Shown here: in pieces, positions 1-37,392 of the stretch | Layout: each line of letters opens with the position of its first letter | Position numbering within the stretch: the first letter of the stretch is position 1 | Virus record (IMG/VR): IMGVR_UViG_3300037479_000222 | Coordinates: 1 to 37,392 of that record | DNA: 37,392 bases | Source: a virus | Reading direction: 5' to 3' (one strand) | Notes under the pieces: generated by a model | Database searches by the model: none | Told to the model about the DNA's origin: nothing | What the model saw: the letters and a program-made list of their open reading frames with translations, nothing else | Made by a program: the position numbers and the translations under genes

Positions 1-127
1 GGCCGTTCGAGTCGTATATCGGCTACCCTGAAACGGCTCGGATTCTTGAAGAGTTGTCCGGCGTGAAGATACCAATCTCTCGCGCCCAGACTACTGTAGA
101 GCCGGGGGACACTCTGTTGATTGCTCG
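1..127. repeat. Terminal direct repeat, copy 1 (identical to 37266-37392)
   Basis: Base-by-base comparison shows 127/127 identity at an offset of 37,265. It lies inside a coding frame. Confidence 0.97.
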
Positions 128-218
128 GCTCAAATATCGGTTGGGCAATCCCGCCGATAAAGGGAAAACCACGCACACCTTGGACGATTTTGAATTCGCT
201 GTGTGCGAGGTGGAATAA
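1..218 (+). CDS. 3' part of the junction-spanning DUF1874 (STIV B116 / AcrIII-1 family)-like protein; continues from 37190..37392
   Basis: Frame 3 reads ..PFESYIGYPETARILEELSGVKIPISRAQTTVEPGDTLLIARLKYRLGNPADKGKTTHTLDDFEFAVCEVE, with stop TAA at 216-218. The joined gene is 97 aa. The motif pattern is recalled from DUF1874 proteins. Confidence 0.75.
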   Translation, partial: PFESYIGYPETARILEELSGVKIPISRAQTTVEPGDTLLIARLKYRLGNPADKGKTTHTLDDFEFAVCEVE

Positions 219-293
219 TTCGGGGCGGTGAGCGCCTCTGGCGCTGTGAACTGATTGAAACGTGGGGCAGCGCCTAAGGGAGAGACGAAGAGC

Positions 294-428
294 ATGGCCG
301 CAACACGGCTAGCGGACGCGCTGACAATCCCGTCGCCGCCGTTGAGTCGGCCAAGGTCGAAGCAAAGGAAATCGGGATGGCGCTACGTCGCCGCCACTTG
401 CAACGACCTGATGAAACAGGTCGAATAG
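294..428 (+). CDS. Hypothetical 44-aa protein (weak call)
   Basis: The ATG is preceded by AAGGGAGAG (276-284). Translation is MAATRLADALTIPSPPLSRPRSKQRKSGWRYVAATCNDLMKQVE, too short to judge. Confidence 0.3.
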   Translation: MAATRLADALTIPSPPLSRPRSKQRKSGWRYVAATCNDLMKQVE

Positions 429-533
429 TTACCGTATACGTCCGCCCGTGGCTCCTGGGCTTCGTGCCTGCGCTGCAATGGCGCATTCCACGGGCGGGCG
501 CCCTATTCAACAACGAACAACGGAGGAACAGAA

Positions 534-701
534 GTGCAATCACCAACTAACGCAGACATATGCAGCGACTTTCGCCTGTGGCAAGAATACGTTGACCCGA
601 ATGGAACAATTACCGAAGAGCAATTTGACGAAATGAGTTCCGAGGAAAAACGACAGATTATTCGCGACTGTTTTGGAGACGACGAGGCTGACAAAGACTA
701 A
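534..701 (+). CDS. Hypothetical acidic 55-aa protein
   Basis: A GTG start lies 7 nt after GGAGG within the recurring ACGGAGGAA leader. Translation is MQSPTNADICSDFRLWQEYVDPNGTITEEQFDEMSSEEKRQIIRDCFGDDEADKD. It is absent from the ORF track because it is under 60 aa. Confidence 0.5.
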   Translation: MQSPTNADICSDFRLWQEYVDPNGTITEEQFDEMSSEEKRQIIRDCFGDDEADKD

Positions 702-855
702 ACCACCGTTTTCCACGCTCAGGCAAGCCTGGCCCCATTGATGCCGCAAGGCGTTGCCCCGCGTGGGGCAAAATCAAACAATCGAGGCCGAGACAGTTCG
801 CGCCGCCTCGGCCCAGAACACAAACAATCTGAACCTGAAGGAGACCAGATTGATT

Positions 856-1131
856 ATGTCCAAACAAAAAATACTCTACAGCGATACCGCGACTCAACAC
901 GGCTTCGGCTCTGACCCCTTCAAATGGGTCAGCGGAGCCACAAAAGCCGAGCAAGCAGCCGCCAAACGCGGTGATATCGTGTTGTTCGAGCAATCAGTTC
1001 AGCGTAATGGCTCGTTCGTCTCTCGTCGGACAGAGTACCGACAAATGATCTACAAAAACGGTCGCTATCTGCCTCGCGTTCCGTCCGCCGATGTCGTTAC
1101 GGCCTACGAGCGCGGCGAGAAGGAGATTTAG
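856..1131 (+). CDS. Hypothetical protein, 91 aa
   Basis: An internal ATG of track ORF 754..1131 is preceded by AAGGAG. The upstream part of that ORF covers GC-rich hairpins. Confidence 0.6.
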   Translation: MSKQKILYSDTATQHGFGSDPFKWVSGATKAEQAAAKRGDIVLFEQSVQRNGSFVSRRTEYRQMIYKNGRYLPRVPSADVVTAYERGEKEI

Positions 1132-1132
1132 C

Positions 1133-1750
1133 ATGGTGACACTCACTGCAACCCTCATGGAGTTAGACGAGCGCGGGCAATGGCTGGCCCGCGCTCTGCG
1201 GAACGAGAGGTATCAAACTATCCAGGGCGCAACCGTGCGCATCGATAAATTTTCAGAGATACCTCTGCGCTCCGTGCTGTCCTACGAACGCCGATTTCGA
1301 TTATTTGACTCGCTCGGTAGGCCGCGCAAAGCGCCTTTGACTCAGGAAGAGGAAAAGCAGTTGGCGAATACGCTCCGCTGTTATGGCGATTCGTACAGCG
1401 GCTTGTGCTCCTTCTCGCCGATAGTGGAGATGTACGAGCAGGGCAATCGCTGCGCTCACTGCTGTTACGCTCAAAAGTGGGAGATGAGCCGCAAAGAAAT
1501 CGCCGACCTCGGCTTGCCATGCGGGCTAAATCTGAGCGCGCCAAACGACGCGCCACAACAGGCGCGAATCACTCAGATAAACAGCATGGGCAGATTCGCT
1601 CAATGGTGGATTGCGTTCGGCGGCTTTGAGCCGATCACCCTGAAAACATCGTGGCGCACCCAGGCCGCGCTAAATGCGCTATTCGGCAAACGTCGCGGCG
1701 TCCCTATTGATTCGGATATCCTAGATGAACGCTGCATGGGGAATAATTAA
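1133..1750 (+). CDS. Hypothetical protein, 205 aa (Cys-containing; carries an internal LSYERR hexapeptide)
   Basis: The ATG lies 8 nt after AAGGAG and 2 nt after the upstream stop. The frame is long, open and of normal composition. Confidence 0.7.
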   Translation: MVTLTATLMELDERGQWLARALRNERYQTIQGATVRIDKFSEIPLRSVLSYERRFRLFDSLGRPRKAPLTQEEEKQLANTLRCYGDSYSGLCSFSPIVEMYEQGNRCAHCCYAQKWEMSRKEIADLGLPCGLNLSAPNDAPQQARITQINSMGRFAQWWIAFGGFEPITLKTSWRTQAALNALFGKRRGVPIDSDILDERCMGNN

Positions 1751-2370: not shown

Positions 2371-3507
2371 TCATGCTTGCTGGCGCACAGAGGCGGTGGG
2401 AGGCATTTCATGGCCTGTCGCGAAGAAAAAGCCGTCAATTTCTCGACAATGCTTTTCAAGAATCTCGACCCCCTGTCTCATTGTCTCCAACCGGACATGG
2501 GTATACGTGGCTGTCTGATCACGGCGCTTGTGGCCGAGTATTGCCGAGACGGCTGAGTATGGGATGCCTGAAGACTCCATGACCGTACTGGCCAAGTGTC
2601 TAACGTCATAAAGAATCCAGCCGTCTTTGATTCGTTCGCCATATTCAACCTTGGCCATCTCCCCGGCCTTCTGTAGCGCTCGATAGAACCCGTTCTTTGG
2701 AATTTGTTTGAAAAATCTTGGGGCATGAACCTGGCGTGATTTCAACATCTCAAGAGCCATTTCAGACAGTGGGACAACGCGAACAGATCCGCCGCCTTTC
2801 TTGGTTTCGATTCTGACCGTCTTCCAATCCCAACTGACCTGGCTTTGTGTGAGATTCAAAATCTCCCCTTCCCTTGCGGCCGTCAAAAGCATGAGCCTGA
2901 AGAGATCAAAGATTTCATGTCTATGATCCATAGAAGCCATTTTCTCTCCCTTTTGTCTGTCGGCCCGGAGCGCCGCCAAGAGCTTCGAGACTTCTTGATT
3001 TGAGAGCAATCTTTCACGGCCCGGAGGATCGGGAAGCCACGGCGCGGTTGGGGGGCGCCATTCGCCAAGCTCCGGGAAATAATCCCCGGCTCTGTGAAGC
3101 GCGCTCGATACTCTCGACAGATATTGATTGATTGTTCCGGGTTGAAGCTTGCGGTCTGCGATGTGATCAAGAAACTTTTTCCAGTCAGCGCGAGTGAGTT
3201 TATTCAAGACCGTTTCATGTTCAACGGCTTCGAGAAATTCATTAAACACTCTAAGCATGGGTTTGCGTTGAGTAAGCGACTTGTCTTTAGTCAATTTGGC
3301 TTCGAGGTCTTTCAGCGTGATTGCCGGTTCGGGCGAGGCCATGCCGTAACGCTCTGCCCGGTTGCGTTCAAACAATGCCGCCACGGCATCCACGGCGTCT
3401 TTCTTTTTTCGCCATTCATATCGCCTGATTCTTTGCCCGGAAATAGTTATATCAAACCCCCATCGCCATGCCTGAAGGTCTTTCCGATATTGCCTTTTGA
3501 TTTTCAT
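2371..3507 (-). CDS. int: Tyrosine recombinase / phage integrase, 378 aa
   Basis: Catalytic-domain motifs are LLTAAREGEIL (Arg), YDVRHLAST, AILGHKRRDQTATYTHV (His..Tyr). The N-terminal region is arm-binding-like (MKIKRQYRKDLQAWRWGFD). Confidence 0.9.
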   Translation of the reverse strand: MKIKRQYRKDLQAWRWGFDITISGQRIRRYEWRKKKDAVDAVAALFERNRAERYGMASPEPAITLKDLEAKLTKDKSLTQRKPMLRVFNEFLEAVEHETVLNKLTRADWKKFLDHIADRKLQPGTINQYLSRVSSALHRAGDYFPELGEWRPPTAPWLPDPPGRERLLSNQEVSKLLAALRADRQKGEKMASMDHRHEIFDLFRLMLLTAAREGEILNLTQSQVSWDWKTVRIETKKGGGSVRVVPLSEMALEMLKSRQVHAPRFFKQIPKNGFYRALQKAGEMAKVEYGERIKDGWILYDVRHLASTVMESSGIPYSAVSAILGHKRRDQTATYTHVRLETMRQGVEILEKHCREIDGFFFATGHEMPPTASVRQQA

Positions 3508-10405: not shown

Positions 10406-10628
10406 ACCATTCGACCTAATTGACTTGCTGAAGTTCCCAACCGTTCGCATCACCATTGGGCATGTCGGCTATCTGTGGATGTGCCACGTCAGCGGAAATT
10501 GGAATGTCTATTCAGCGAAGAAAAGTCGATCAACTGTTCATATCGTTGTCTCTACGCCGAATATCAATGAGGCCATTGCTGTGTTTGTCAAAGAGGCTGG
10601 AATCACCAAGGAGGACGCATATGGTTGA
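10398..10628 (+). CDS. Hypothetical protein, 76 aa
   Basis: The start forms an ATGTCTGA overlap with the upstream stop. The gene ends 8 nt inside the next gene. Confidence 0.6.
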   Translation: MSEPFDLIDLLKFPTVRITIGHVGYLWMCHVSGNWNVYSAKKSRSTVHIVVSTPNINEAIAVFVKEAGITKEDAYG

Positions 10629-11526
10629 CTTCGCAAAACTCATTGCTCAAAAGCGAGAGCAATACAATATCGAGAACAGGCCAAAAGCCCATCCCACTGT
10701 GTCTATCTCTGTCGCCGGCAGTGATTATGCAATCAAGTTCGGTTACGACGCGGCCCTACTGAAGAAGCTCAAAGATGCAATTCCCGAATCAGAGCGGACT
10801 TGGCACAAGACTCAAAAAGTCTGGCTTATCTCTCCCGATGAAATTGGGATGGCAATCAACGTCATCCGACTTCATACAGGCTACCCATTGGATTTGCCCG
10901 TTGAGAAGCCACAAGCCCCCGAGGTCTTAGAGAAAACATTCTTACTCGAATACCTGGGCGCAACGAAAGACCGGGGCAAAATCAAATCGGCTTACGGCTC
11001 AGTCAATAGGCAATGGGCTTCTGAATTTCCTGAAGAGGTCTTGAAAAACTTCTTTGAGGGGAGGGAAGCTGATCAATCGCCGTCAGGTCTTCAGACGCTT
11101 TATCAAGTCCTGTGTGTTTTGGAGAAGACCACACCGGAAGAGATCAAGAAAGCCTACAGGCGGCTATCTCTGCAATGGCATCCCGACGTGTGCAAAGAAC
11201 CCGACGCGCAAGAGATGTTTGTCAAAATCAATAGCGCCTACAAGGTCTTGAGCGACCCCGAACAGAAGAGACGCTATGACGCCGGGTTGTATTTCGAGAG
11301 GCAGAGCCATGAGCAAGACATGAGTATCAGGGTTTCGCGCTACACAGGCTATGGCTATCGCGCTCCTCTTCGATGTGGCCAGATCACGGCCAGAGGGACA
11401 GTTAGGCTCATGCGCTTTGTCGTTCAAGAAATCCTCAAGTGGGATGACATCACAAACGGAGAAGGCAAAACGATGGTCAGCCAATGGCCGACCGGAGCGG
11501 ACACTTTTCAAATTCTTTGGGTTTAA
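10621..11526 (+). CDS. J-domain (DnaJ-like) protein, 301 aa
   Basis: The J domain is LYQVLCVLEKTTPEEIKKAYRRLSLQWHPDVCKEPDAQEMFVKINSAYKVLSDPEQKRRYD, with the HPD triplet. ATG at 10621 follows AAGGAGG (the track ORF begins earlier, overlapping 10398..10628 out of frame). Confidence 0.8.
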   Translation: MVDFAKLIAQKREQYNIENRPKAHPTVSISVAGSDYAIKFGYDAALLKKLKDAIPESERTWHKTQKVWLISPDEIGMAINVIRLHTGYPLDLPVEKPQAPEVLEKTFLLEYLGATKDRGKIKSAYGSVNRQWASEFPEEVLKNFFEGREADQSPSGLQTLYQVLCVLEKTTPEEIKKAYRRLSLQWHPDVCKEPDAQEMFVKINSAYKVLSDPEQKRRYDAGLYFERQSHEQDMSIRVSRYTGYGYRAPLRCGQITARGTVRLMRFVVQEILKWDDITNGEGKTMVSQWPTGADTFQILWV

Positions 11527-19925: not shown

Positions 19926-20498
19926 ATGAATAATGTAAAGAGTATGAGCGAAACCCGAAAATATCTGACCGAATCTGAGATCGAAATCTTTTTGAAGGCT
20001 TCGAAGAAGACCCGGAACGGAATCCGGGATTACTGTATGGCGATGATGGCCTATCGTCATGGATTCAGGGTAAGCGAACTTATCAGCGTTCGAATAAACG
20101 AAGTCCACCTGGACATGGCCCGGCTCGATGTTCGAAGGCTTAAGAAGGGGCTAGACGGTCATCACCCAATCGAGGGAGACGAACTTCGGGCGATTCGGGC
20201 ATGGCTCAAAGAAAGAACGGTCCATAAGTTTTCAGGCTCGCCCAATCTGTTTCTGAGCGAGCGCGGACCTTTCACAAGACAGGCCGTCAATTATCTCTTC
20301 GAGGTCATAGGCCAGAAAGCCGGCTTAACGATCAAGGTCCATCCCCACATGTTGCGCCATTCCTGTGGCTACAAGCTGGCCAATGACGAAAGAACGACGC
20401 GAGATATTCAAGACTATCTAGGCCATCGAGACATCAGGCAGACAGCCAAATACACGGCCCTCAACGCCGAGCGATTCAGAAACTTTTGGAGGAAATGA
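19926..20498 (+). CDS. Small tyrosine recombinase of the FimB/FimE (DNA invertase/resolvase-like) type, 190 aa
   Basis: It aligns by eye along its whole length with FimB: YLTESEIEIFLKA..RDYCMAMMAYRHGFRVSEL..RLKKG..HP..HPHMLRHSCGYKLAN..IQDYLGHRDIRQTAKYTALNAERF. The start could instead be the Met at 19944. Confidence 0.88.
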   Translation: MNNVKSMSETRKYLTESEIEIFLKASKKTRNGIRDYCMAMMAYRHGFRVSELISVRINEVHLDMARLDVRRLKKGLDGHHPIEGDELRAIRAWLKERTVHKFSGSPNLFLSERGPFTRQAVNYLFEVIGQKAGLTIKVHPHMLRHSCGYKLANDERTTRDIQDYLGHRDIRQTAKYTALNAERFRNFWRK

Positions 20499-21286: not shown

Positions 21287-21796
21287 TTAATCACTAAAGG
21301 CAAACCAGAGCAATAAGCCCGCGGCCCCTATTATAAGCCATACCGGGAAGTCTCCAGGGGAGACAGTCACTTGATCAAGATTGACAACAGAACTTTCAGT
21401 AAAGCCAGCCTGATTATAGATCGCTTGGGCATAAGCCTTTGCCGCGGCTGAAACCGTCCCGCGCTGGACGTTTCCGGGACCGCCATTGTAGCCCTGAAGG
21501 GCTTTGAGGTAATCGCCATTGAACATGGCTATCAGGGCAATCATATATCTGCCCCAGGCGTCGAGCGCGAGTTCAGGATTGTAGGCATTCGTATGAGGCC
21601 CAGAGCCGTAATCTTTCCATGTCGCCGGGGTGAATTGACTAATCCCTCTCTCACCCGCGCCGCCGACGAACGGCCCGAAGATCACATCCTGTCGCCAGCC
21701 TGATTCGCGTTGCATTTGAGCAAGGGCGATGTTCGGATCGATCCCGTACTGATTGGCTTTCGCGACAACTAATTGTTTGATCTCTTCAGTCGTCAT
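21287..21796 (-). CDS. Lytic transglycosylase (SLT domain) with a C-terminal TM anchor, 169 aa
   Basis: The SLT motif is IALAQMQRESGWRQD...GERGISQFTPATWKDYG...YNGGPGN. The C-terminal anchor is FPVWLIIGAAGLLLWFAF. Confidence 0.85.
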   Translation of the reverse strand: MTTEEIKQLVVAKANQYGIDPNIALAQMQRESGWRQDVIFGPFVGGAGERGISQFTPATWKDYGSGPHTNAYNPELALDAWGRYMIALIAMFNGDYLKALQGYNGGPGNVQRGTVSAAAKAYAQAIYNQAGFTESSVVNLDQVTVSPGDFPVWLIIGAAGLLLWFAFSD

Positions 21797-21799
21797 TTA

Positions 21800-21958
21800 T
21801 CATTCCCAACCCCAGGCTTTAAAAGCACGGTCGAGCAAATCACGCAAGGCCATCAATCTTGGCCGAAGTTTTACAGCCTTTGACCCATCAGGATTTTTTA
21901 CGACTTGCGTAAGCCAACTTTCAAAAGTCCCAAAAGCTATTGATTCCCACCAAGACAT
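21800..21958 (-). CDS. Hypothetical 52-aa Trp-rich amphipathic protein
   Basis: Translation is MSWWESIAFGTFESWLTQVVKNPDGSKAVKLRPRLMALRDLLDRAFKAWGWE. AGGAG lies 7 nt before the ATG. It fills the gap between two genes and is not in the track. Confidence 0.5.
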   Translation of the reverse strand: MSWWESIAFGTFESWLTQVVKNPDGSKAVKLRPRLMALRDLLDRAFKAWGWE

Positions 21959-21973
21959 AATTGCTTCTCCTGT

Positions 21974-22552
21974 TTAGTTTTGAACAAGTTCGATGATCGA
22001 GAGATTCTGAATTACGTCGTTATCCGCTGTCCCCTCACCGCTGACTAGCATAGTTATAGGGTTCAAGTTGAGATTAGGAAGCCCGGCAATAATCCCGTTG
22101 CGAACAGTAAACACTCCACCAGAACCAAAAGGAATATTGACATTCGCTGAATCTACACCCATCGCGTTAGCGCCAAAAAAATGACTCAATAAAACTGAGG
22201 TAGATGAAAGACGGACTATTCGCGCAGCAATCGCCCAACCCACACTGACAACAAGATCCCGAAGGCCAGTATCTTCCCATATCGTTCCGCCAAAACTAGT
22301 GACGACTCTTTTAAGATTGGCATTCGTCGCATAGTCACCGCCGTACCAAACATGCAAATAATCTCCATCACTTCGCAGACTGTTTGCGGGAAGGGAAAAA
22401 CTGTGAAGCGGATCAAGGCCTGCGCCCTGATTGCCAACTACCGCCGTATTGACTTCTATGTTGCGAACTAAGCCCACAAAACTAAACTCCCCAGTTGGCC
22501 GTTTGTGAAGCCCCAAGAGGCCCGCATGTCTTCGTTCATAAGAAAGCGCCAT
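21974..22552 (-). CDS. Spike/receptor-binding candidate B, 192 aa (N-terminal MALSYERRH)
   Basis: It shares the LSYERR N terminus with the upstream gene, while the rest is beta-rich and unrelated. The start lies 1 nt after the upstream stop. Confidence 0.7.
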   Translation of the reverse strand: MALSYERRHAGLLGLHKRPTGEFSFVGLVRNIEVNTAVVGNQGAGLDPLHSFSLPANSLRSDGDYLHVWYGGDYATNANLKRVVTSFGGTIWEDTGLRDLVVSVGWAIAARIVRLSSTSVLLSHFFGANAMGVDSANVNIPFGSGGVFTVRNGIIAGLPNLNLNPITMLVSGEGTADNDVIQNLSIIELVQN

Positions 22553-22553
22553 A

Positions 22554-23264
22554 TCATGGCCTAATTGCTATAAGCCCCGTCGCCCACGGCTCAGTTGGTG
22601 TATTTGGCAACCCCGTTGCGATCTTGTTTCCTGTCGCGCCCTGTGGCGTTAGATTGCCGGTAGACGTAAAAAGCAGCGTCACAGAACCATCGAGCCTGGT
22701 TGTCAGTACCGGAGTTACGCCACCTGGAGGGGTGATGCCGGGGAAATTCCACTTCGAGCAAAAGTAAACAATCAAACTGTTATTGATCGCTGTTGTGATT
22801 CCCGGCGCCGTGGCCGTTGCTCCTAGGCCCGTTGCCGTCGAAATTTCGCCTGGATCAACGGGTGTTATAAGGTCCGCTCCGAAAGCCGACATCATCCATG
22901 CGTTAGTTGAAGCATTCGCATGAGTGATTGTGTAGTTGGCCGGTTCTCCTGCGGCGATTTTTATCCAGGCGTAAGTGTCGACTGTGAAGATCGTTGTATC
23001 AGCCCGCGTGAGCGGAAAACCCGGCAAAATGCTAAATCCGGCCGGGGGCGTTGCGACCGGAGGCGCCGCCCCGCCACCTATGCCGTCTTCAAAGATCAGT
23101 AGTAGAAAATCGTCATCGGCCACGCCGGCCGGGGCATTGATAACCGTGTCTGTGCGCCCGCCCGCGAAATTAACGAACGAATCAGACCTGAACGTGACGG
23201 CGCCGGCCTGCGCCCCGCCACCCATGCCTCTGAAATGTCTTCTTCTTCTCTCGTAAGAAAGCAT
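22554..23264 (-). CDS. Spike/receptor-binding candidate A, 236 aa (N-terminal MLSYERRRRH)
   Basis: The protein is beta-rich and G/T/A/P-rich. The start abuts the upstream stop (TAGATG). Confidence 0.7.
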   Translation of the reverse strand: MLSYERRRRHFRGMGGGAQAGAVTFRSDSFVNFAGGRTDTVINAPAGVADDDFLLLIFEDGIGGGAAPPVATPPAGFSILPGFPLTRADTTIFTVDTYAWIKIAAGEPANYTITHANASTNAWMMSAFGADLITPVDPGEISTATGLGATATAPGITTAINNSLIVYFCSKWNFPGITPPGGVTPVLTTRLDGSVTLLFTSTGNLTPQGATGNKIATGLPNTPTEPWATGLIAIRP

Positions 23265-31291: not shown

Positions 31292-31645
31292 TTATCGTCC
31301 TCTCTTGCCCAACGTGAATAACAAGAAGCCGCCGACAATCAGCATGAGTGTCGTTTGTGATAGCTGAATCCCGCTTGACGGTTGCGGTTGTGCTCCAGGC
31401 GTTGGCGCAGGCACGGGAACCGGCGCGGGCGATGGCGTTGGAAACTGTGGATACGGTGGATAGCCGGCTACTTCTACAGTGGCGACCTGTGCGGCTCTCT
31501 CAATCGCCCGGTTGATTGAGTCTACGTACCAGGGCGTTTCGTAAGACGGCGCGCTTGCTGTTGGCTGTCTCGACGACCCTTCTTCAACCGGGACGATGTA
31601 ATCAACGTAAGGCAGGCCGAAATACTCAAATACTTGTTCGTCCAT
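31292..31645 (-). CDS. Tail-anchored membrane protein with a Pro-rich linker, 117 aa
   Basis: PYPQFPTPSPAPVPVPAPTPGAQPQP is followed by the TM TTLMLIVGGFLLFTLGKRGR. The start forms a TGATG overlap with the upstream gene. Confidence 0.7.
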   Translation of the reverse strand: MDEQVFEYFGLPYVDYIVPVEEGSSRQPTASAPSYETPWYVDSINRAIERAAQVATVEVAGYPPYPQFPTPSPAPVPVPAPTPGAQPQPSSGIQLSQTTLMLIVGGFLLFTLGKRGR

Positions 31646-32247
31646 CAGAGAATCTCCCAGGGAAGCTCAAATCCCCCGTCTAGTGTTTGTTGCCGCCAGC
31701 CCATTGGTTGGTCTTTGGCGACGGCATCAAGAGCCAACCATTCGCTACTGGGCATCAAGACTTCGCAATACACATGGCTTGCGCTCTCGCCGTCCACCCA
31801 CTGAGCTACGAAGCGAGGTCGAAGGCCGAGACACATCGCCAGCGTTGCGAGCAATACCGACAGGCTTACGCAATCGCCTCTCTTTAATTCGAGCGTTCGC
31901 CTTGCGTCCTGCAATGTCTGTTGATTTATCGGATGTGGTTCGTAGGTGATGTTGGCTATCACCCAATTGAACAGGGCGGCTATCTGACTTCGGGCATCGT
32001 GGTTGTTTGCGCCGGCAGTGATTTGATAAGCCGCCCTGATATTGAACTCGTCTTGATAGCCGCTGTAATCAGGACCGATGCGCCCCAACACGGCATCCCG
32101 CATTGCATCGAGCGTCATGAAAGTGGCGCCATCACCATCAGGTAACGGTCTGTATTCAATTGAGTGAGAGAGGGAGGCGGCGGGCGCAAGGCGTCTAAGC
32201 GGGTAGTAATCGCTAGTCCCAGAAAATGCGCCCATGTTTGCCGCCAT
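31645..32247 (-). CDS. Transglutaminase-like cysteine protease-fold protein, 200 aa
   Basis: The Cys-His-Asp core pattern is KRGDCVSLSVLLATLAMCLGLRPRFV...SHVYCEV...WLALDAV. It is the first gene of the late operon. Confidence 0.7.
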   Translation of the reverse strand: MAANMGAFSGTSDYYPLRRLAPAASLSHSIEYRPLPDGDGATFMTLDAMRDAVLGRIGPDYSGYQDEFNIRAAYQITAGANNHDARSQIAALFNWVIANITYEPHPINQQTLQDARRTLELKRGDCVSLSVLLATLAMCLGLRPRFVAQWVDGESASHVYCEVLMPSSEWLALDAVAKDQPMGWRQQTLDGGFELPWEIL

Positions 32248-32313
32248 AAAGTCGAAGCCTCAAAGCGACTCGCGACTACTACCGGGCGCAAGAAACCACA
32301 AAAGAATCTTAGG

Positions 32314-32360
32314 TGTCAAGCCATAAACGGTTGACAAATATTAGGTTTAAGGCGTATACG
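32314..32360 (+). promoter_or_regulatory. Divergent control region: inverted repeat TGTCAA-N11-TTGACA overlapping a sigma70-like promoter
   Basis: TTGACA (32331-32336), an 18-nt spacer, then TATACG (32355-32360), lying between the divergent late operon and the 32470 operon. Confidence 0.3.
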
Positions 32361-32469
32361 GCTTACGTTTGTTAAGTGAGAGTCTATCGGTTGTGATGTC
32401 TGAGTTTTACTCAAACTTCACTCCATGATCTGTTGAAAATATTTTTTTATCTCTCGGAAAGGAGTGGGA

Positions 32470-33876
32470 ATGCCGAGAAAGAAAACAGCCGAAGTTGAAA
32501 TCCTGCCACCTGAAGACAATCAAGCAAAGCAAGGGCGCCCGAAGATCGTTGAAGCCAAGCACACAATCGAGTTTAAAGCGCCCCACGCAATCGAAGAGCC
32601 AATTAACGAAGATGAAGAGATCGAGATTGATGATGATCTTGTCGCCGAAGACAGGCCGAAGAAGAAGCGCCAGAGCTATCGTGAAGAGCTTCGCAAAAAA
32701 CTCAGAGCGCAAGGCGTGTCGCCCGCGACTAGGCTGACGATCACAATCGAGCGGTACACGCACAGCGAGTCCGGCGAAAGCGGGATGTGGGCGGATCGAG
32801 AGTTTTGCGCCAAGAACTTTTGCGAAGAGCAATATGTTTTGGACGAAGGCTATATGGATTTGCTGAAGCAATGGGGGCCGGGGACGTATCGTATTACGCT
32901 CAGGTTGAACGGAACCATTGTTGACGCTTTCGATAAGCGAGTAGCCGCGCCTCCAAAAACAACTCCAATCATCCAACATGTCAATCCGAATGATCCGACT
33001 TCCCCGCAAGTGATCGTCCAAACAACCAACGGCGACGGCCAAGCGCAGCAAATCCCGATGTCAATCAAGGACATCATGAAAACTCAGCGCGAGGCTTTGA
33101 AAGAACAGTTCGAAATGGCGAAGCTCATGCGCGAGGCTTACGGATTCGCTCCTGAGCAATCGCAAGCGAATCAACAGCAAACAACCGATCCCGAACTAGC
33201 AGCATTACAACTAATCACAAAGAATCCTGATGTCATGGAGAAGATCGCCGGAGGTCTTGCGAAAACAATCTTCGGCGGCAAGGGCGGCAGTGACGACGCG
33301 CCCTGGTGGGCGGACATCTTAAAAGACTCAATAACGACGGGCCAGCTGGCGCCAACGGTTCAAGGAGTCGTTAAGGCGCTATTTCCCAACGGCCTATTTG
33401 GCGGTCTATTCCCCGGAGGCAATAATAATGGGCAAGCTCCAACAACGCAGGCGCAAACGCAGGCGGCGACAACTGCGCCAGCAACTACGCCGGAACAACA
33501 TTCACCTAATCCCAATGCCTTACTCAGTGATGGAGTGCATGCAGTTCATACAGAACGAACTGGCGAGGGAGTATCAGGAGTCACGCCCGAGCAACACGCG
33601 CTCTCAAGACTGATCGAGAACTGTCAACGCAATGTTCCCGTTCAAGTGGCGTTTCAACAGTTGGTCAACTATGCCGATGCGATCAATGAACAAGCCCCGG
33701 AATATTCAATCGACGGCTACATTGATTTGCTTGGCTCAATGGAGACAGAGCAAGTGATTGAATTCGTGAAGTCCCTTCCAGGCGGCGAGCAAATAGCGTC
33801 TTTGCCTCACGCGGCTTCATGGACAAGTGAGCTTCAGCGATTGATCAAAGAGAGTCAGGAGGGCGAAGAGGAATGA
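32470..33876 (+). CDS. Hypothetical protein, 468 aa (charged N terminus, Q/T/A/P/G-rich linker, helical C terminus)
   Basis: ATG at 32470 lies 6 nt after AGGAG. The ORF is long and has no P-loop. Confidence 0.75.
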   Translation: MPRKKTAEVEILPPEDNQAKQGRPKIVEAKHTIEFKAPHAIEEPINEDEEIEIDDDLVAEDRPKKKRQSYREELRKKLRAQGVSPATRLTITIERYTHSESGESGMWADREFCAKNFCEEQYVLDEGYMDLLKQWGPGTYRITLRLNGTIVDAFDKRVAAPPKTTPIIQHVNPNDPTSPQVIVQTTNGDGQAQQIPMSIKDIMKTQREALKEQFEMAKLMREAYGFAPEQSQANQQQTTDPELAALQLITKNPDVMEKIAGGLAKTIFGGKGGSDDAPWWADILKDSITTGQLAPTVQGVVKALFPNGLFGGLFPGGNNNGQAPTTQAQTQAATTAPATTPEQHSPNPNALLSDGVHAVHTERTGEGVSGVTPEQHALSRLIENCQRNVPVQVAFQQLVNYADAINEQAPEYSIDGYIDLLGSMETEQVIEFVKSLPGGEQIASLPHAASWTSELQRLIKESQEGEEE

Positions 33877-36969: not shown

Positions 36970-37185
36970 ATGAAACACGCGGATTATAACAACGGATTTA
37001 TTGCCCACAACGTTGAAGAGCGATTGGGTTTACCTTGCGGCTCCGTGGCGATCGCATCAGAGAGCGAGGATGGCCCGCTGTACGCGCTGGTGGAATTCAA
37101 TGGCCGCGGGAACGGCCAAACGGTGGTGGCAGTTACGGAGCAAGACCAGAGATACGGGCTGACCTATGAAGAAATTACTAAATAG
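36970..37185 (+). CDS. Hypothetical protein, 71 aa
   Basis: A GAGGTGAGAG SD is present. Confidence 0.6.
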   Translation: MKHADYNNGFIAHNVEERLGLPCGSVAIASESEDGPLYALVEFNGRGNGQTVVAVTEQDQRYGLTYEEITK

Positions 37186-37189
37186 CGCA

Positions 37190-37392
37190 ATGATGCCCAA
37201 TCTCGATTGCGTCTATGATTGCCGCTCGTGCGGGCCGTACGAGTTCGCGCGCTATCTTCAAGCCGGGCCGTTCGAGTCGTATATCGGCTACCCTGAAACG
37301 GCTCGGATTCTTGAAGAGTTGTCCGGCGTGAAGATACCAATCTCTCGCGCCCAGACTACTGTAGAGCCGGGGGACACTCTGTTGATTGCTCG
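37190..37392 (+). CDS. 5' part of the junction-spanning DUF1874 (AcrIII-1 family)-like gene; continues at 1..218
   Basis: It starts ATGATGCCC and reads MMPNLDCVYDCRSCGPYEFARYLQAGPFESYIGYPETARILEELSGVKIPISRAQTTVEPGDTLLIAR... There is no stop before the window end, and the frame continues into position 3 of the window. Confidence 0.75.
   Translation, partial: MMPNLDCVYDCRSCGPYEFARYLQAGPFESYIGYPETARILEELSGVKIPISRAQTTVEPGDTLLIA
37266..37392. repeat. Terminal direct repeat, copy 2 (identical to 1-127)
   Basis: 127/127 identity with the window start. Confidence 0.97.

Follow-up and report, generated by a model that had tools for sequence, protein, structure and literature searches.

The window analysed here, that is, the whole 37,392-nucleotide stretch of the IMG/VR virus record IMGVR_UViG_3300037479_000222 (positions 1 to 37,392), carries a gene of the DUF1874 family that is split between the two ends of the assembled sequence. 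This family includes AcrIII-1, a ring nuclease of viruses, and its cellular relative Crn2, which degrade cyclic tetra-adenylate (cA4), the second messenger of type III CRISPR immunity. The window protein has a tyrosine (Tyr42) at the position of the catalytic histidine of the characterized enzymes, and the same tyrosine marks a whole branch of the family, members of which occur in uncultured phages and mobile elements as well as in cellular type III-A operons. The protein most likely neutralises cA4. The gene at the joined ends comprises the following parts.

Positions 1..127, identical to 37266..37392, no strand assigned: terminal direct repeat, exact match, lying inside the DUF1874 gene (codons 34-76).
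Positions 37166..37392, plus strand: 5′ part of the DUF1874 gene, beginning with the ATG at 37166 (codons 1-75 plus 2 nt).
Positions 128..218, plus strand: 3′ part of the DUF1874 gene, beginning with Leu77 and closed by the TAA stop at 216-218.
Positions 37289..37291, and again 24-26, plus strand: TAC codon of Tyr42, at the position of the catalytic His47 of AcrIII-1 and His495 of Csx1-Crn2.

The ends 1..127 and 37266..37392 form an exact 127-bp direct repeat, so that the 37,392-base window consists of a 37,265-bp unit plus the terminal overlap. This repeat marks a circular or terminally redundant assembly. When the maximum k-mer is 127, assemblers leave an overlap of just that many bp at the ends of circular contigs; because the repeat matches this length, it probably reflects circular assembly and not a biological terminal repeat. 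Joined accordingly, positions 37166..37392 and 128..218 give one unbroken frame of 105 codons, which is open upstream to a TGA at 37160-37162. The original prediction, made from the sequence alone, had recognized that the junction splits this gene, and joining the ends does give exactly its 97-aa product; its start at 37190, however, lies within the gene, the true ATG being at 37166, and its extent of 37190..37392 is incomplete, as it omits both the first codons and the part at 128..218. The product is a protein of 105 aa with the N-terminus MKKLLNSAMMPNL..., starting 8 codons upstream of the 97-aa form. The longer form is preferred because it is already present in the protein database as an identical entry (P0001), because all 40 of 40 close homologues share the start M-x-K-L-x-N-S-A-M-M-P, because the score against Pfam PF08960 rises from 26.8 bits for the 97-aa form to 30.7 bits (profile positions 3-83), and because only the longer form includes N6 and S7, which match two residues that bind the ligand in solved relatives. 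The tyrosine in question is therefore residue 42 of the 105-aa protein and residue 34 in the numbering of the shorter form.

Membership in the DUF1874 fold family is solidly established. The 105-aa protein exceeds the gathering cut-off of PF08960 (DUF1874/STIV_B116-like; 30.7 bits vs 26), an annotation that is also carried, precomputed, by 40/40 close homologues, and it matches phrog_5063. With the window protein as the phmmer query, AFV3-109 (2j6b) was found in the PDB at E 1.7e-6; a profile of the 40 homologues retrieved 2j6b at E 2e-16, Csx1-Crn2 at 4e-9, SIRV1 gp29 at 3e-7 and 2e-6 (6scf), and STIV B116 at 1e-5. An AlphaFold2 model of the monomer, built on a 40-sequence alignment, reached a predicted local distance difference test (pLDDT) value of 92.4 and a predicted template-modelling score (pTM) of 0.84. 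In a Foldseek search of the PDB, this model matched 2j6b, 6scf, 2x4i, 2j85 and 8y7g/8y7f with template-modelling (TM) scores of 0.74-0.85 (0.85 for 2j6b, 0.80-0.82 for 6scf, which is AcrIII-1 with cA4, and 0.83 for 8y7g, which is Csx1-Crn2 with cA4), and no PDB match outside the family was found below E=2. The motifs on which the assignment had been based before any database search (G-Y-x-x-T-A, IP.sR, GD..L, LkYR and DFEF) are all present. The assignment itself thus held up, as the protein passed the Pfam threshold and its model has the family fold and matches the AcrIII-1 structures. As to the outcomes named beforehand as fatal to the idea, namely the lack of a DUF1874 hit or fold match, or a catalytic His conserved elsewhere, both a hit and a fold match were found and the His column holds Tyr.

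The replacement of the catalytic residue was likewise borne out by alignment to the solved members (2j6b, 2j85, 2x4i/6scf and 8y7f/8y6z/8y7g). Tyr42, in the loop I-G-Y-P-E-T-A, aligns on the His of I-G-H-Q-A-T in AFV3-109, on that of I-G-H-D-S-T in SIRV1 gp29 (H47) and STIV B116, and on that of I-G-H-E-S-V in the Marinitoga protein (H495); the H495A crystal variant of Csx1-Crn2 places its Ala in the same column, and the SIRV1 gp29 sequence used here is 100% identical to that of the virus genome. The original prediction had named the loop His as the catalytic residue, and the primary papers on AcrIII-1 and Csx1-Crn2 agree. In the AcrIII-1 paper, His47 is described as “absolutely conserved” and as the general acid, and H47A lowers activity more than 2500-fold; elsewhere in the literature on this family the His is also called absolutely or highly conserved. 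In Csx1-Crn2, H495A abolishes Crn2 activity, and H495A and E536A are reported to abolish or markedly reduce it. According to the structure paper on Csx1-Crn2, the scissile phosphate is bound by N451 and R514 and the adjacent nucleotide (A1) by S452 and K529, L530 contacts an adenine (A2), R533 acts as a lid lock, H495 is the general acid, and E536, equivalent to E88 of AcrIII-1, props the His. The corresponding residues in a nine-sequence alignment are as follows.

N451 and R514 (Marinitoga): N6 and R61 in the window protein, kept.
S452 and K529 (Marinitoga): S7 and R76 in the window protein, kept.
L530 (Marinitoga): L77 in the window protein, kept.
R533, lid lock (Marinitoga): R80 in the window protein, kept.
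H495, general acid (Marinitoga): Tyr42 in the window protein, replaced.
E536 (Marinitoga) or E88 (AcrIII-1): Asn83 in the window protein, replaced.

The columns of N6, G41, R61 and R80 are invariant over the nine sequences, which represent both the His and the Tyr class, whereas the lid-loop alignment that pairs Asn83 with E88/E536 is less certain than that of the core. The binding residues are also conserved among 184 relatives of the window protein (N6 in 178, R61 in 181, S7 in 157, R or K at position 76 in 179, L77 in 179 and R80 in 183). At the level of sequence, then, the cA4 pocket appears to be preserved and the chemistry altered. Among the features that define the functional family, the window protein has the Asn and Arg of the scissile phosphate and the lock Arg and lacks the catalytic His and the lid-loop Glu, the defining catalytic residues. 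Annotation as a ring nuclease should await an assay.

The only His of the window protein, H92 (codon 173..175), comes directly behind the lid loop. It is kept in the 14 closest relatives (at least 63% identity), in which it might contribute an imidazole, and is Pro in most of the Tyr clade. As a general substitute for the lost catalytic His it was set aside, being conserved in these 14 nearest relatives only.

The 184 relatives, a sample in which the best 150 of 1,733 hits from a profile search of 1.84 billion representative sequences (these 150 all scoring above 100 bits) were pooled with the 40 close homologues, span 30-84% identity. Position 42 is Tyr in 183 of them and Trp in one (P0169); neither His nor Phe occurs. 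When a mixed His/Tyr profile was used for a second search, 88 further proteins were obtained, every one of the His type. The two classes differ at three motifs in addition to column 42 itself.

N-terminal motif: N-x-x-S-x-N in the His class; N-S-A-M-M-P plus Tyr17 in the Tyr class.
Catalytic loop: I-G-H-[DE]-S-T in the His class; I-G-Y-P-E-T in the Tyr class.
Lid: R-L-[EP]-E-G-K in the His class (E in 88/88); [RK]-L-K-Y-R-V-x-[DN]-P-x-x-K-G in the Tyr class.

Within the Tyr class, Tyr79 is found in 170/184 relatives and Lys87 in 175/184, and position 83 is Asp in 69 and Asn in 61 of 183, its counterpart in the His type being Glu in 88/88. A neighbour-joining tree from which columns 42 and 79 had been masked contained a single split between the 184 Tyr/Trp sequences and the 88 His sequences; since the tree sample consists of two top-hit sets, intermediates may be under-sampled. 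The Tyr branch comprises at least 150 clusters at 50% identity, the whole of PF08960 amounting here to about 1,600-1,700 clusters. Aromatic residues do swap elsewhere in the clade, as at position 97 (F in 112, Y in 59), and because position 42 is never Phe, this absence argues that a hydroxyl would be needed there. No member of the Tyr clade was detected by tblastn among 50,697 deposited phage genomes (INPHARED); the sole match was weak and partial, to a Stygiolobus rod-shaped virus, and was of the His type (IGHEST). A search of the literature found no description of a Tyr variant of Crn2 or AcrIII-1. Thus, the Tyr branch is apparently undescribed; it lies within the already known DUF1874 family and does not constitute a new category of system.

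The genomic settings of the clade link it to cA4 signalling. A scan of species-representative genomes yielded 18 loci, 14 of them in metagenome-assembled genomes (MAGs) of Candidatus Poribacteria and the others including one Acidobacteriota MAG and one Chloroflexota MAG. In 13 of the 18, a conserved type III-A operon contains the Tyr-type DUF1874 gene, which is flanked by csm5 on one side and a Csx1-type gene on the other; the order, confirmed on one Poribacteria locus (L002, e.g., L002:4283-11526), is as follows.

Operon order on L002: cas10, csm2, csm3, csm4, csm5, DUF1874 (Tyr), csx1.

The cas10 product of this locus has HD, Csm1_B and palm2 domains with intact HD and GGDD motifs, and near the operon are cas6 and CRISPR arrays with 59 and 93 repeats. 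The neighbouring protein of about 400 aa matches TIGR02221 at 120 bits and has a DxTHG motif in its CARF domain and an R-x4-H motif in its HEPN domain; the CARF domain matches that of the cA4-activated Marinitoga Csx1 (E 9e-10). By these features, this neighbour is a Csx1-type CARF-HEPN effector, and because such an effector adjoins the clade gene, the Tyr clade occupies the position of Crn2. It is this combination of type III-A operons, a cyclase-competent Cas10 and a Csx1-type effector that ties the clade to cA4.

Copies in the viral fraction agree with those in the genomes as regards the catalytic column, which holds Tyr in 28/28 viral loci (IMG/VR contigs) and in 18/18 genome loci. The proteins most similar to that of the window (63-70% identity) are encoded in phage contigs of 52-58 kb among small genes of early type; P0005 and P0033 are situated in phage early regions, and one clade relative heads a RecT recombination module. 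Position 79 is usually His in the operon copies (L-R-H-R) and Tyr in the phage copies (L-K-Y-R), and this switch hints that position 79 may lie near the active site. On a 52-kb phage contig (L020), the clade gene, encoding P0012, is directly followed by a gene for a 350-aa protein (L020:10390-11442) with a weak AcrVA2-like Pfam hit, and a Lar restriction-alleviation gene (L020:1882-2373) lies upstream; this neighbourhood looks like an anti-defence island. Another clade member, P0075 (190 aa), is fused to XRE-type helix-turn-helix (HTH) domains (PF12844, PF01381, PF13560 and PF13443) and by analogy resembles fusions of anti-CRISPRs with Aca regulators. The other longer domain-containing proteins were discarded as informative fusions, as they carry only NUMOD3 and N-methylation motifs and are probably gene-call run-ons, so that P0075 is the only suggestive fusion among them.

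In the window itself, the following features surround the gene or bear on the nature of the element.

Positions 534..701, plus strand: AcrF31-like open reading frame (ORF) of 55 aa, Pfam PF25703 “Anti-CRISPR protein F31” (48.6 bits vs cut-off 27, E 8e-13).
Positions 36970..37185, plus strand: upstream ORF of 71 aa, from the ORF list and its translation, overlapping the start of the DUF1874 gene by 20 nt.
Positions 439..451 (CGTCCGCCCGTGG) and 488..500 (CCACGGGCGGGCG), no strand assigned: 13-nt GC-rich inverted repeat with a 36-nt spacer, from an inverted-repeat search.
Positions 2371..3507, minus strand: tyrosine integrase of 378 aa (phrog_1 integrase, E 2e-48), about 2 kb downstream of the DUF1874/AcrF31-like locus.
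Positions 19926..20498, plus strand: second, integrase-like ORF of 190 aa.
Positions 10456..11526, plus strand: DnaJ (J) domain protein of 356 aa, domain at residues 215-275 (82 bits).
Positions 21287..21796: lytic transglycosylase.
Positions 31645..32247: transglutaminase-like core.

The AcrF31-like ORF begins 316 bp downstream of the DUF1874 stop codon on the same strand, and the same pair recurs on an independent JGI contig, Ga0484938_101913 (L051); among all fetched loci, an AcrF31-like protein was found only in this twin contig. Because it lies so close by on the same strand, the two genes are predicted to make up a small anti-CRISPR locus. A literature search for AcrIF31 returned no paper. 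The 71-aa ORF upstream has no PHROG or Pfam match, and its 20-nt overlap with the DUF1874 gene suggests co-transcription or coupled translation of the two. The inverted repeat at 439..500 lies between the DUF1874 gene and the AcrF31-like ORF and lacks the T-tract expected of a typical intrinsic terminator; when positions 1..1200 were scanned for promoters and terminators, nothing exceeded chance.

Besides the integrase, the element encodes a DNA methyltransferase and a primase-polymerase/helicase, and no tRNA gene was found in the window. For so small a mobile element, the DnaJ-domain protein is unusual cargo. A block of about 12 kb (21287..33876) consists mostly of minus-strand ORFs of 117-539 aa plus a plus-strand ORF of 470 aa and, apart from the transglycosylase and the transglutaminase-like core, gave no PHROG, Pfam, PDB or phage tblastn match; phmmer searches of the PDB with the 470-aa and 539-aa ORFs and a tblastn search of phages with the 470-aa ORF returned nothing. 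A megablast search with 25 kb of the window found no match among the INPHARED phages, and no capsid, portal or terminase was recognized among about 40 window ORFs scanned against PHROG and Pfam. Since an integrase is present and these virion genes were not recognized, the element is regarded as integrative and mobile; it may be a virus of a novel type or a non-viral integrative element. The location of the gene thus corresponds to that of AcrIII-1 as regards the window copy, which is on a mobile element, and to that of Crn2 as regards the clade in type III loci.

These observations can be combined into a model in which the 105-aa protein, an anti-defence protein of the integrative element with the AcrIII-1/Crn2 fold, would act as a homodimer and bind cA4 in a pocket at the dimer interface. 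N6 and R61 would engage the scissile phosphate; contacts to the neighbouring phosphate and adenine would come from S7 and R76, and L77 would contact an adenine, while R80 would serve as the “lock” of the lid; capture of cA4 would keep Csx1-type effectors from being activated. It is probable that the protein dimerises, binds cA4 and removes it from signalling, thereby protecting the element from type III immunity. As for the manner of removal, the hydroxyl of Tyr42 may act as a proton donor or as a hydrogen-bond donor to the transition state, such that cA4 would be cleaved to A2>P, probably at a rate below the ~5-10 per minute of the His enzymes, with tight binding adding to the inhibition. Such a Tyr-dependent, probably slower ring nuclease is favoured over a pure sponge, with a confidence that falls a little short of even, because the requirement for a hydroxyl appears to be strict, because the phosphate-activating Asn and Arg are kept, and because a regulator encoded by the cell must clear cA4. 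In the 2019 preprint on AcrIII-1, the authors raised the possibility that copies in cells are “detuned” so as to work more slowly, and the Tyr clade is a candidate for such copies.

Several points weigh against this model. Both members of the His-Glu catalytic pair are gone (Tyr42 and Asn83), and the substitutions H47A, H495A and E536A cripple the known enzymes. The lone Trp variant, P0169, cannot donate a proton in the way that Tyr can. The Poribacteria arrays next to clade genes yielded 297 spacers, not one of which matches the window or any other fetched locus, so that the window element has no host link. In addition, an AcrIII-1 homologue in its native virus was reported not to act as an anti-CRISPR, owing to late expression.

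The loss of both catalytic residues would equally suit a non-catalytic sponge, in which the lid of the dimer would close on cA4 and sequester it without cleavage; a phage copy would then block signalling stoichiometrically, and CRISPR-encoded copies would buffer cA4 and set the threshold of activation. The His-to-Ala variant of Csx1-Crn2 does not cleave cA4 and yet binds it with a dissociation constant of ~62 nM (Csx1-Crn2 structure paper), so that a catalytically dead DUF1874 protein would be a ready-made sponge. All binding residues are kept in the window protein, the Trp at position 42 of P0169 fits a stacking or packing role, and the Csx15 family provides a precedent, as this one ring-nuclease family contains members that only sequester cA4 alongside others with slow cleavage. 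Such a role is quite possible, but it is considered the less likely of the two, because a merely non-catalytic residue would be expected to vary, whereas position 42 is Tyr in all but one relative and never Phe, and because a host regulator unable to destroy cA4 could not reset the system by itself. The near invariance of N6 and R61, which are needed for catalysis by Crn2, is a weaker objection, since both also contribute to binding. Removal of cA4 by a Tyr-dependent nuclease therefore remains the preferred reading.

The identity of the ligand and the nature of the activity can also be questioned. The remodelling of the lid throughout the clade, with newly conserved Y79 and K87, would be expected if the signature Y42, Y79 and K87 reflected an altered specificity and not an altered chemistry, the same fold and pocket serving another nucleotide signal (a cyclic oligoadenylate of another ring size or a cyclic nucleotide unrelated to type III systems), and the neighbours in the window give no direct indication of the target system. 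This appears unlikely, given that the adjoining effector is of the Csx1 type with the cA4-activated Marinitoga Csx1 as its closest solved relative, that all cA4-contacting side chains defined in Crn2 are retained, and that known extrinsic ring nucleases are, according to the literature, almost exclusively associated with cA4 effectors. A role unrelated to nucleotides, such as binding and inhibiting a host protein, as has been reported for SIRV2 gp37 with a lysine methyltransferase, would accord with the behaviour of that AcrIII-1 homologue in its native system, where it inhibited the host methyltransferase and had no anti-CRISPR effect during infection; moreover, nuclease activity cannot be assumed where the catalytic pair is lost. 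It is nonetheless improbable, as the residues of the nucleotide pocket are the most conserved positions of the clade, clade members adjoin Csx1 in type III-A operons, the methyltransferase partner is restricted to Crenarchaeota, and the window copy lies beside a gene of an anti-CRISPR family. Finally, one transition suffices to turn a His codon (CAC) into a Tyr codon (TAC), and one His (H92) lies near the lid and is shared by the nearest relatives, which might point to an ordinary His-type AcrIII-1 that was misaligned or to a decayed or erroneous copy. This idea is scarcely credible and was rejected as refuted for practical purposes: Tyr42 falls on the catalytic column in four independent alignments, as the H495A crystal variant also indicates, the invariance of Tyr extends over relatives, viral loci and genome loci alike, the clade is monophyletic even with the catalytic column masked, and H92 gives way to Pro across most of it.

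AcrIII-1/Crn2 is the textbook viral ring nuclease, with a mechanism built on an “absolutely conserved” His, and the Tyr branch swaps the His-Glu pair for Tyr plus Asp or Asn, with the cA4 pocket kept whole. It is tentatively proposed that the Tyr clade represents a functionally distinct arm of DUF1874, comprising either the first cA4 sponges of this family or histidine-free, Tyr-based ring nucleases. If this is true, the arm would have two roles, one as a “detuned” cellular Crn2 regulator in the type III-A operons of Poribacteria and others and the other as an anti-CRISPR in uncultured phages and mobile elements. The branch, found both in phages and beside Csx1 in type III-A operons, also offers a testable case for the notions that cells may domesticate an anti-CRISPR enzyme by slowing or disabling it and that ring-nuclease families may split into degraders and sponges. 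Searches and annotations keyed to the His motif would mislabel Tyr-type proteins or assume an activity that is possibly absent. The Tyr variant deserves the attention of those who study type III CRISPR.

Four known systems invite comparison. AcrIII-1 (SIRV1 gp29, PDB 6SCF, and its homologue in phage THSA-485A) belongs to the same Pfam family, has the same fold, and is likewise a small stand-alone protein of mobile elements, with the GD motif and the terminal strand in common; its N8, R66 and R85 correspond to N6, R61 and R80 of the window protein. The two are, however, only ~17-25% identical: H47 and E88 are replaced by Tyr42 and Asn83, and S11, N13 and S49 by Met9, Pro11 and Glu44, the lid reads R-L-G-N-P-A-D-K-G instead of R-L-E-E-G-K, and the window protein has an additional conserved Tyr79 before the lock Arg. 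Crn2, as present in the Marinitoga Csx1-Crn2 fusion (8Y7G), shares with the window protein the N-terminal motif L-N-S-x-[IM]-[LM]-P and its fold (TM score 0.83), and the counterparts of N451, S452, R514, K529, L530 and R533 are all conserved. By contrast, H495 and E536, both of which are required for Crn2 activity, correspond to Tyr and Asn. Crn2 also resides in CRISPR loci and the window copy on a mobile element, and, whereas the Marinitoga protein is a fusion, the clade gene and csx1 of Poribacteria are separate adjacent genes. AFV3-109 (2J6B), from a crenarchaeal virus, is the best match in both sequence (26% identity) and structure (TM score 0.85), and has in common with the window protein the motif LNSAxxP, an aromatic residue at position 17 and L-K-x-R-L; it differs in being of the His type (I-G-H-Q-A-T-A, R-L-P-E-G) and in originating from an archaeal lipothrixvirus. 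Csx15, lastly, is a functional analogue, as a cA4-specific regulator and anti-CRISPR family with both sponge and slow-nuclease members, although it has an unrelated CARF fold and acts through the formation of filaments.

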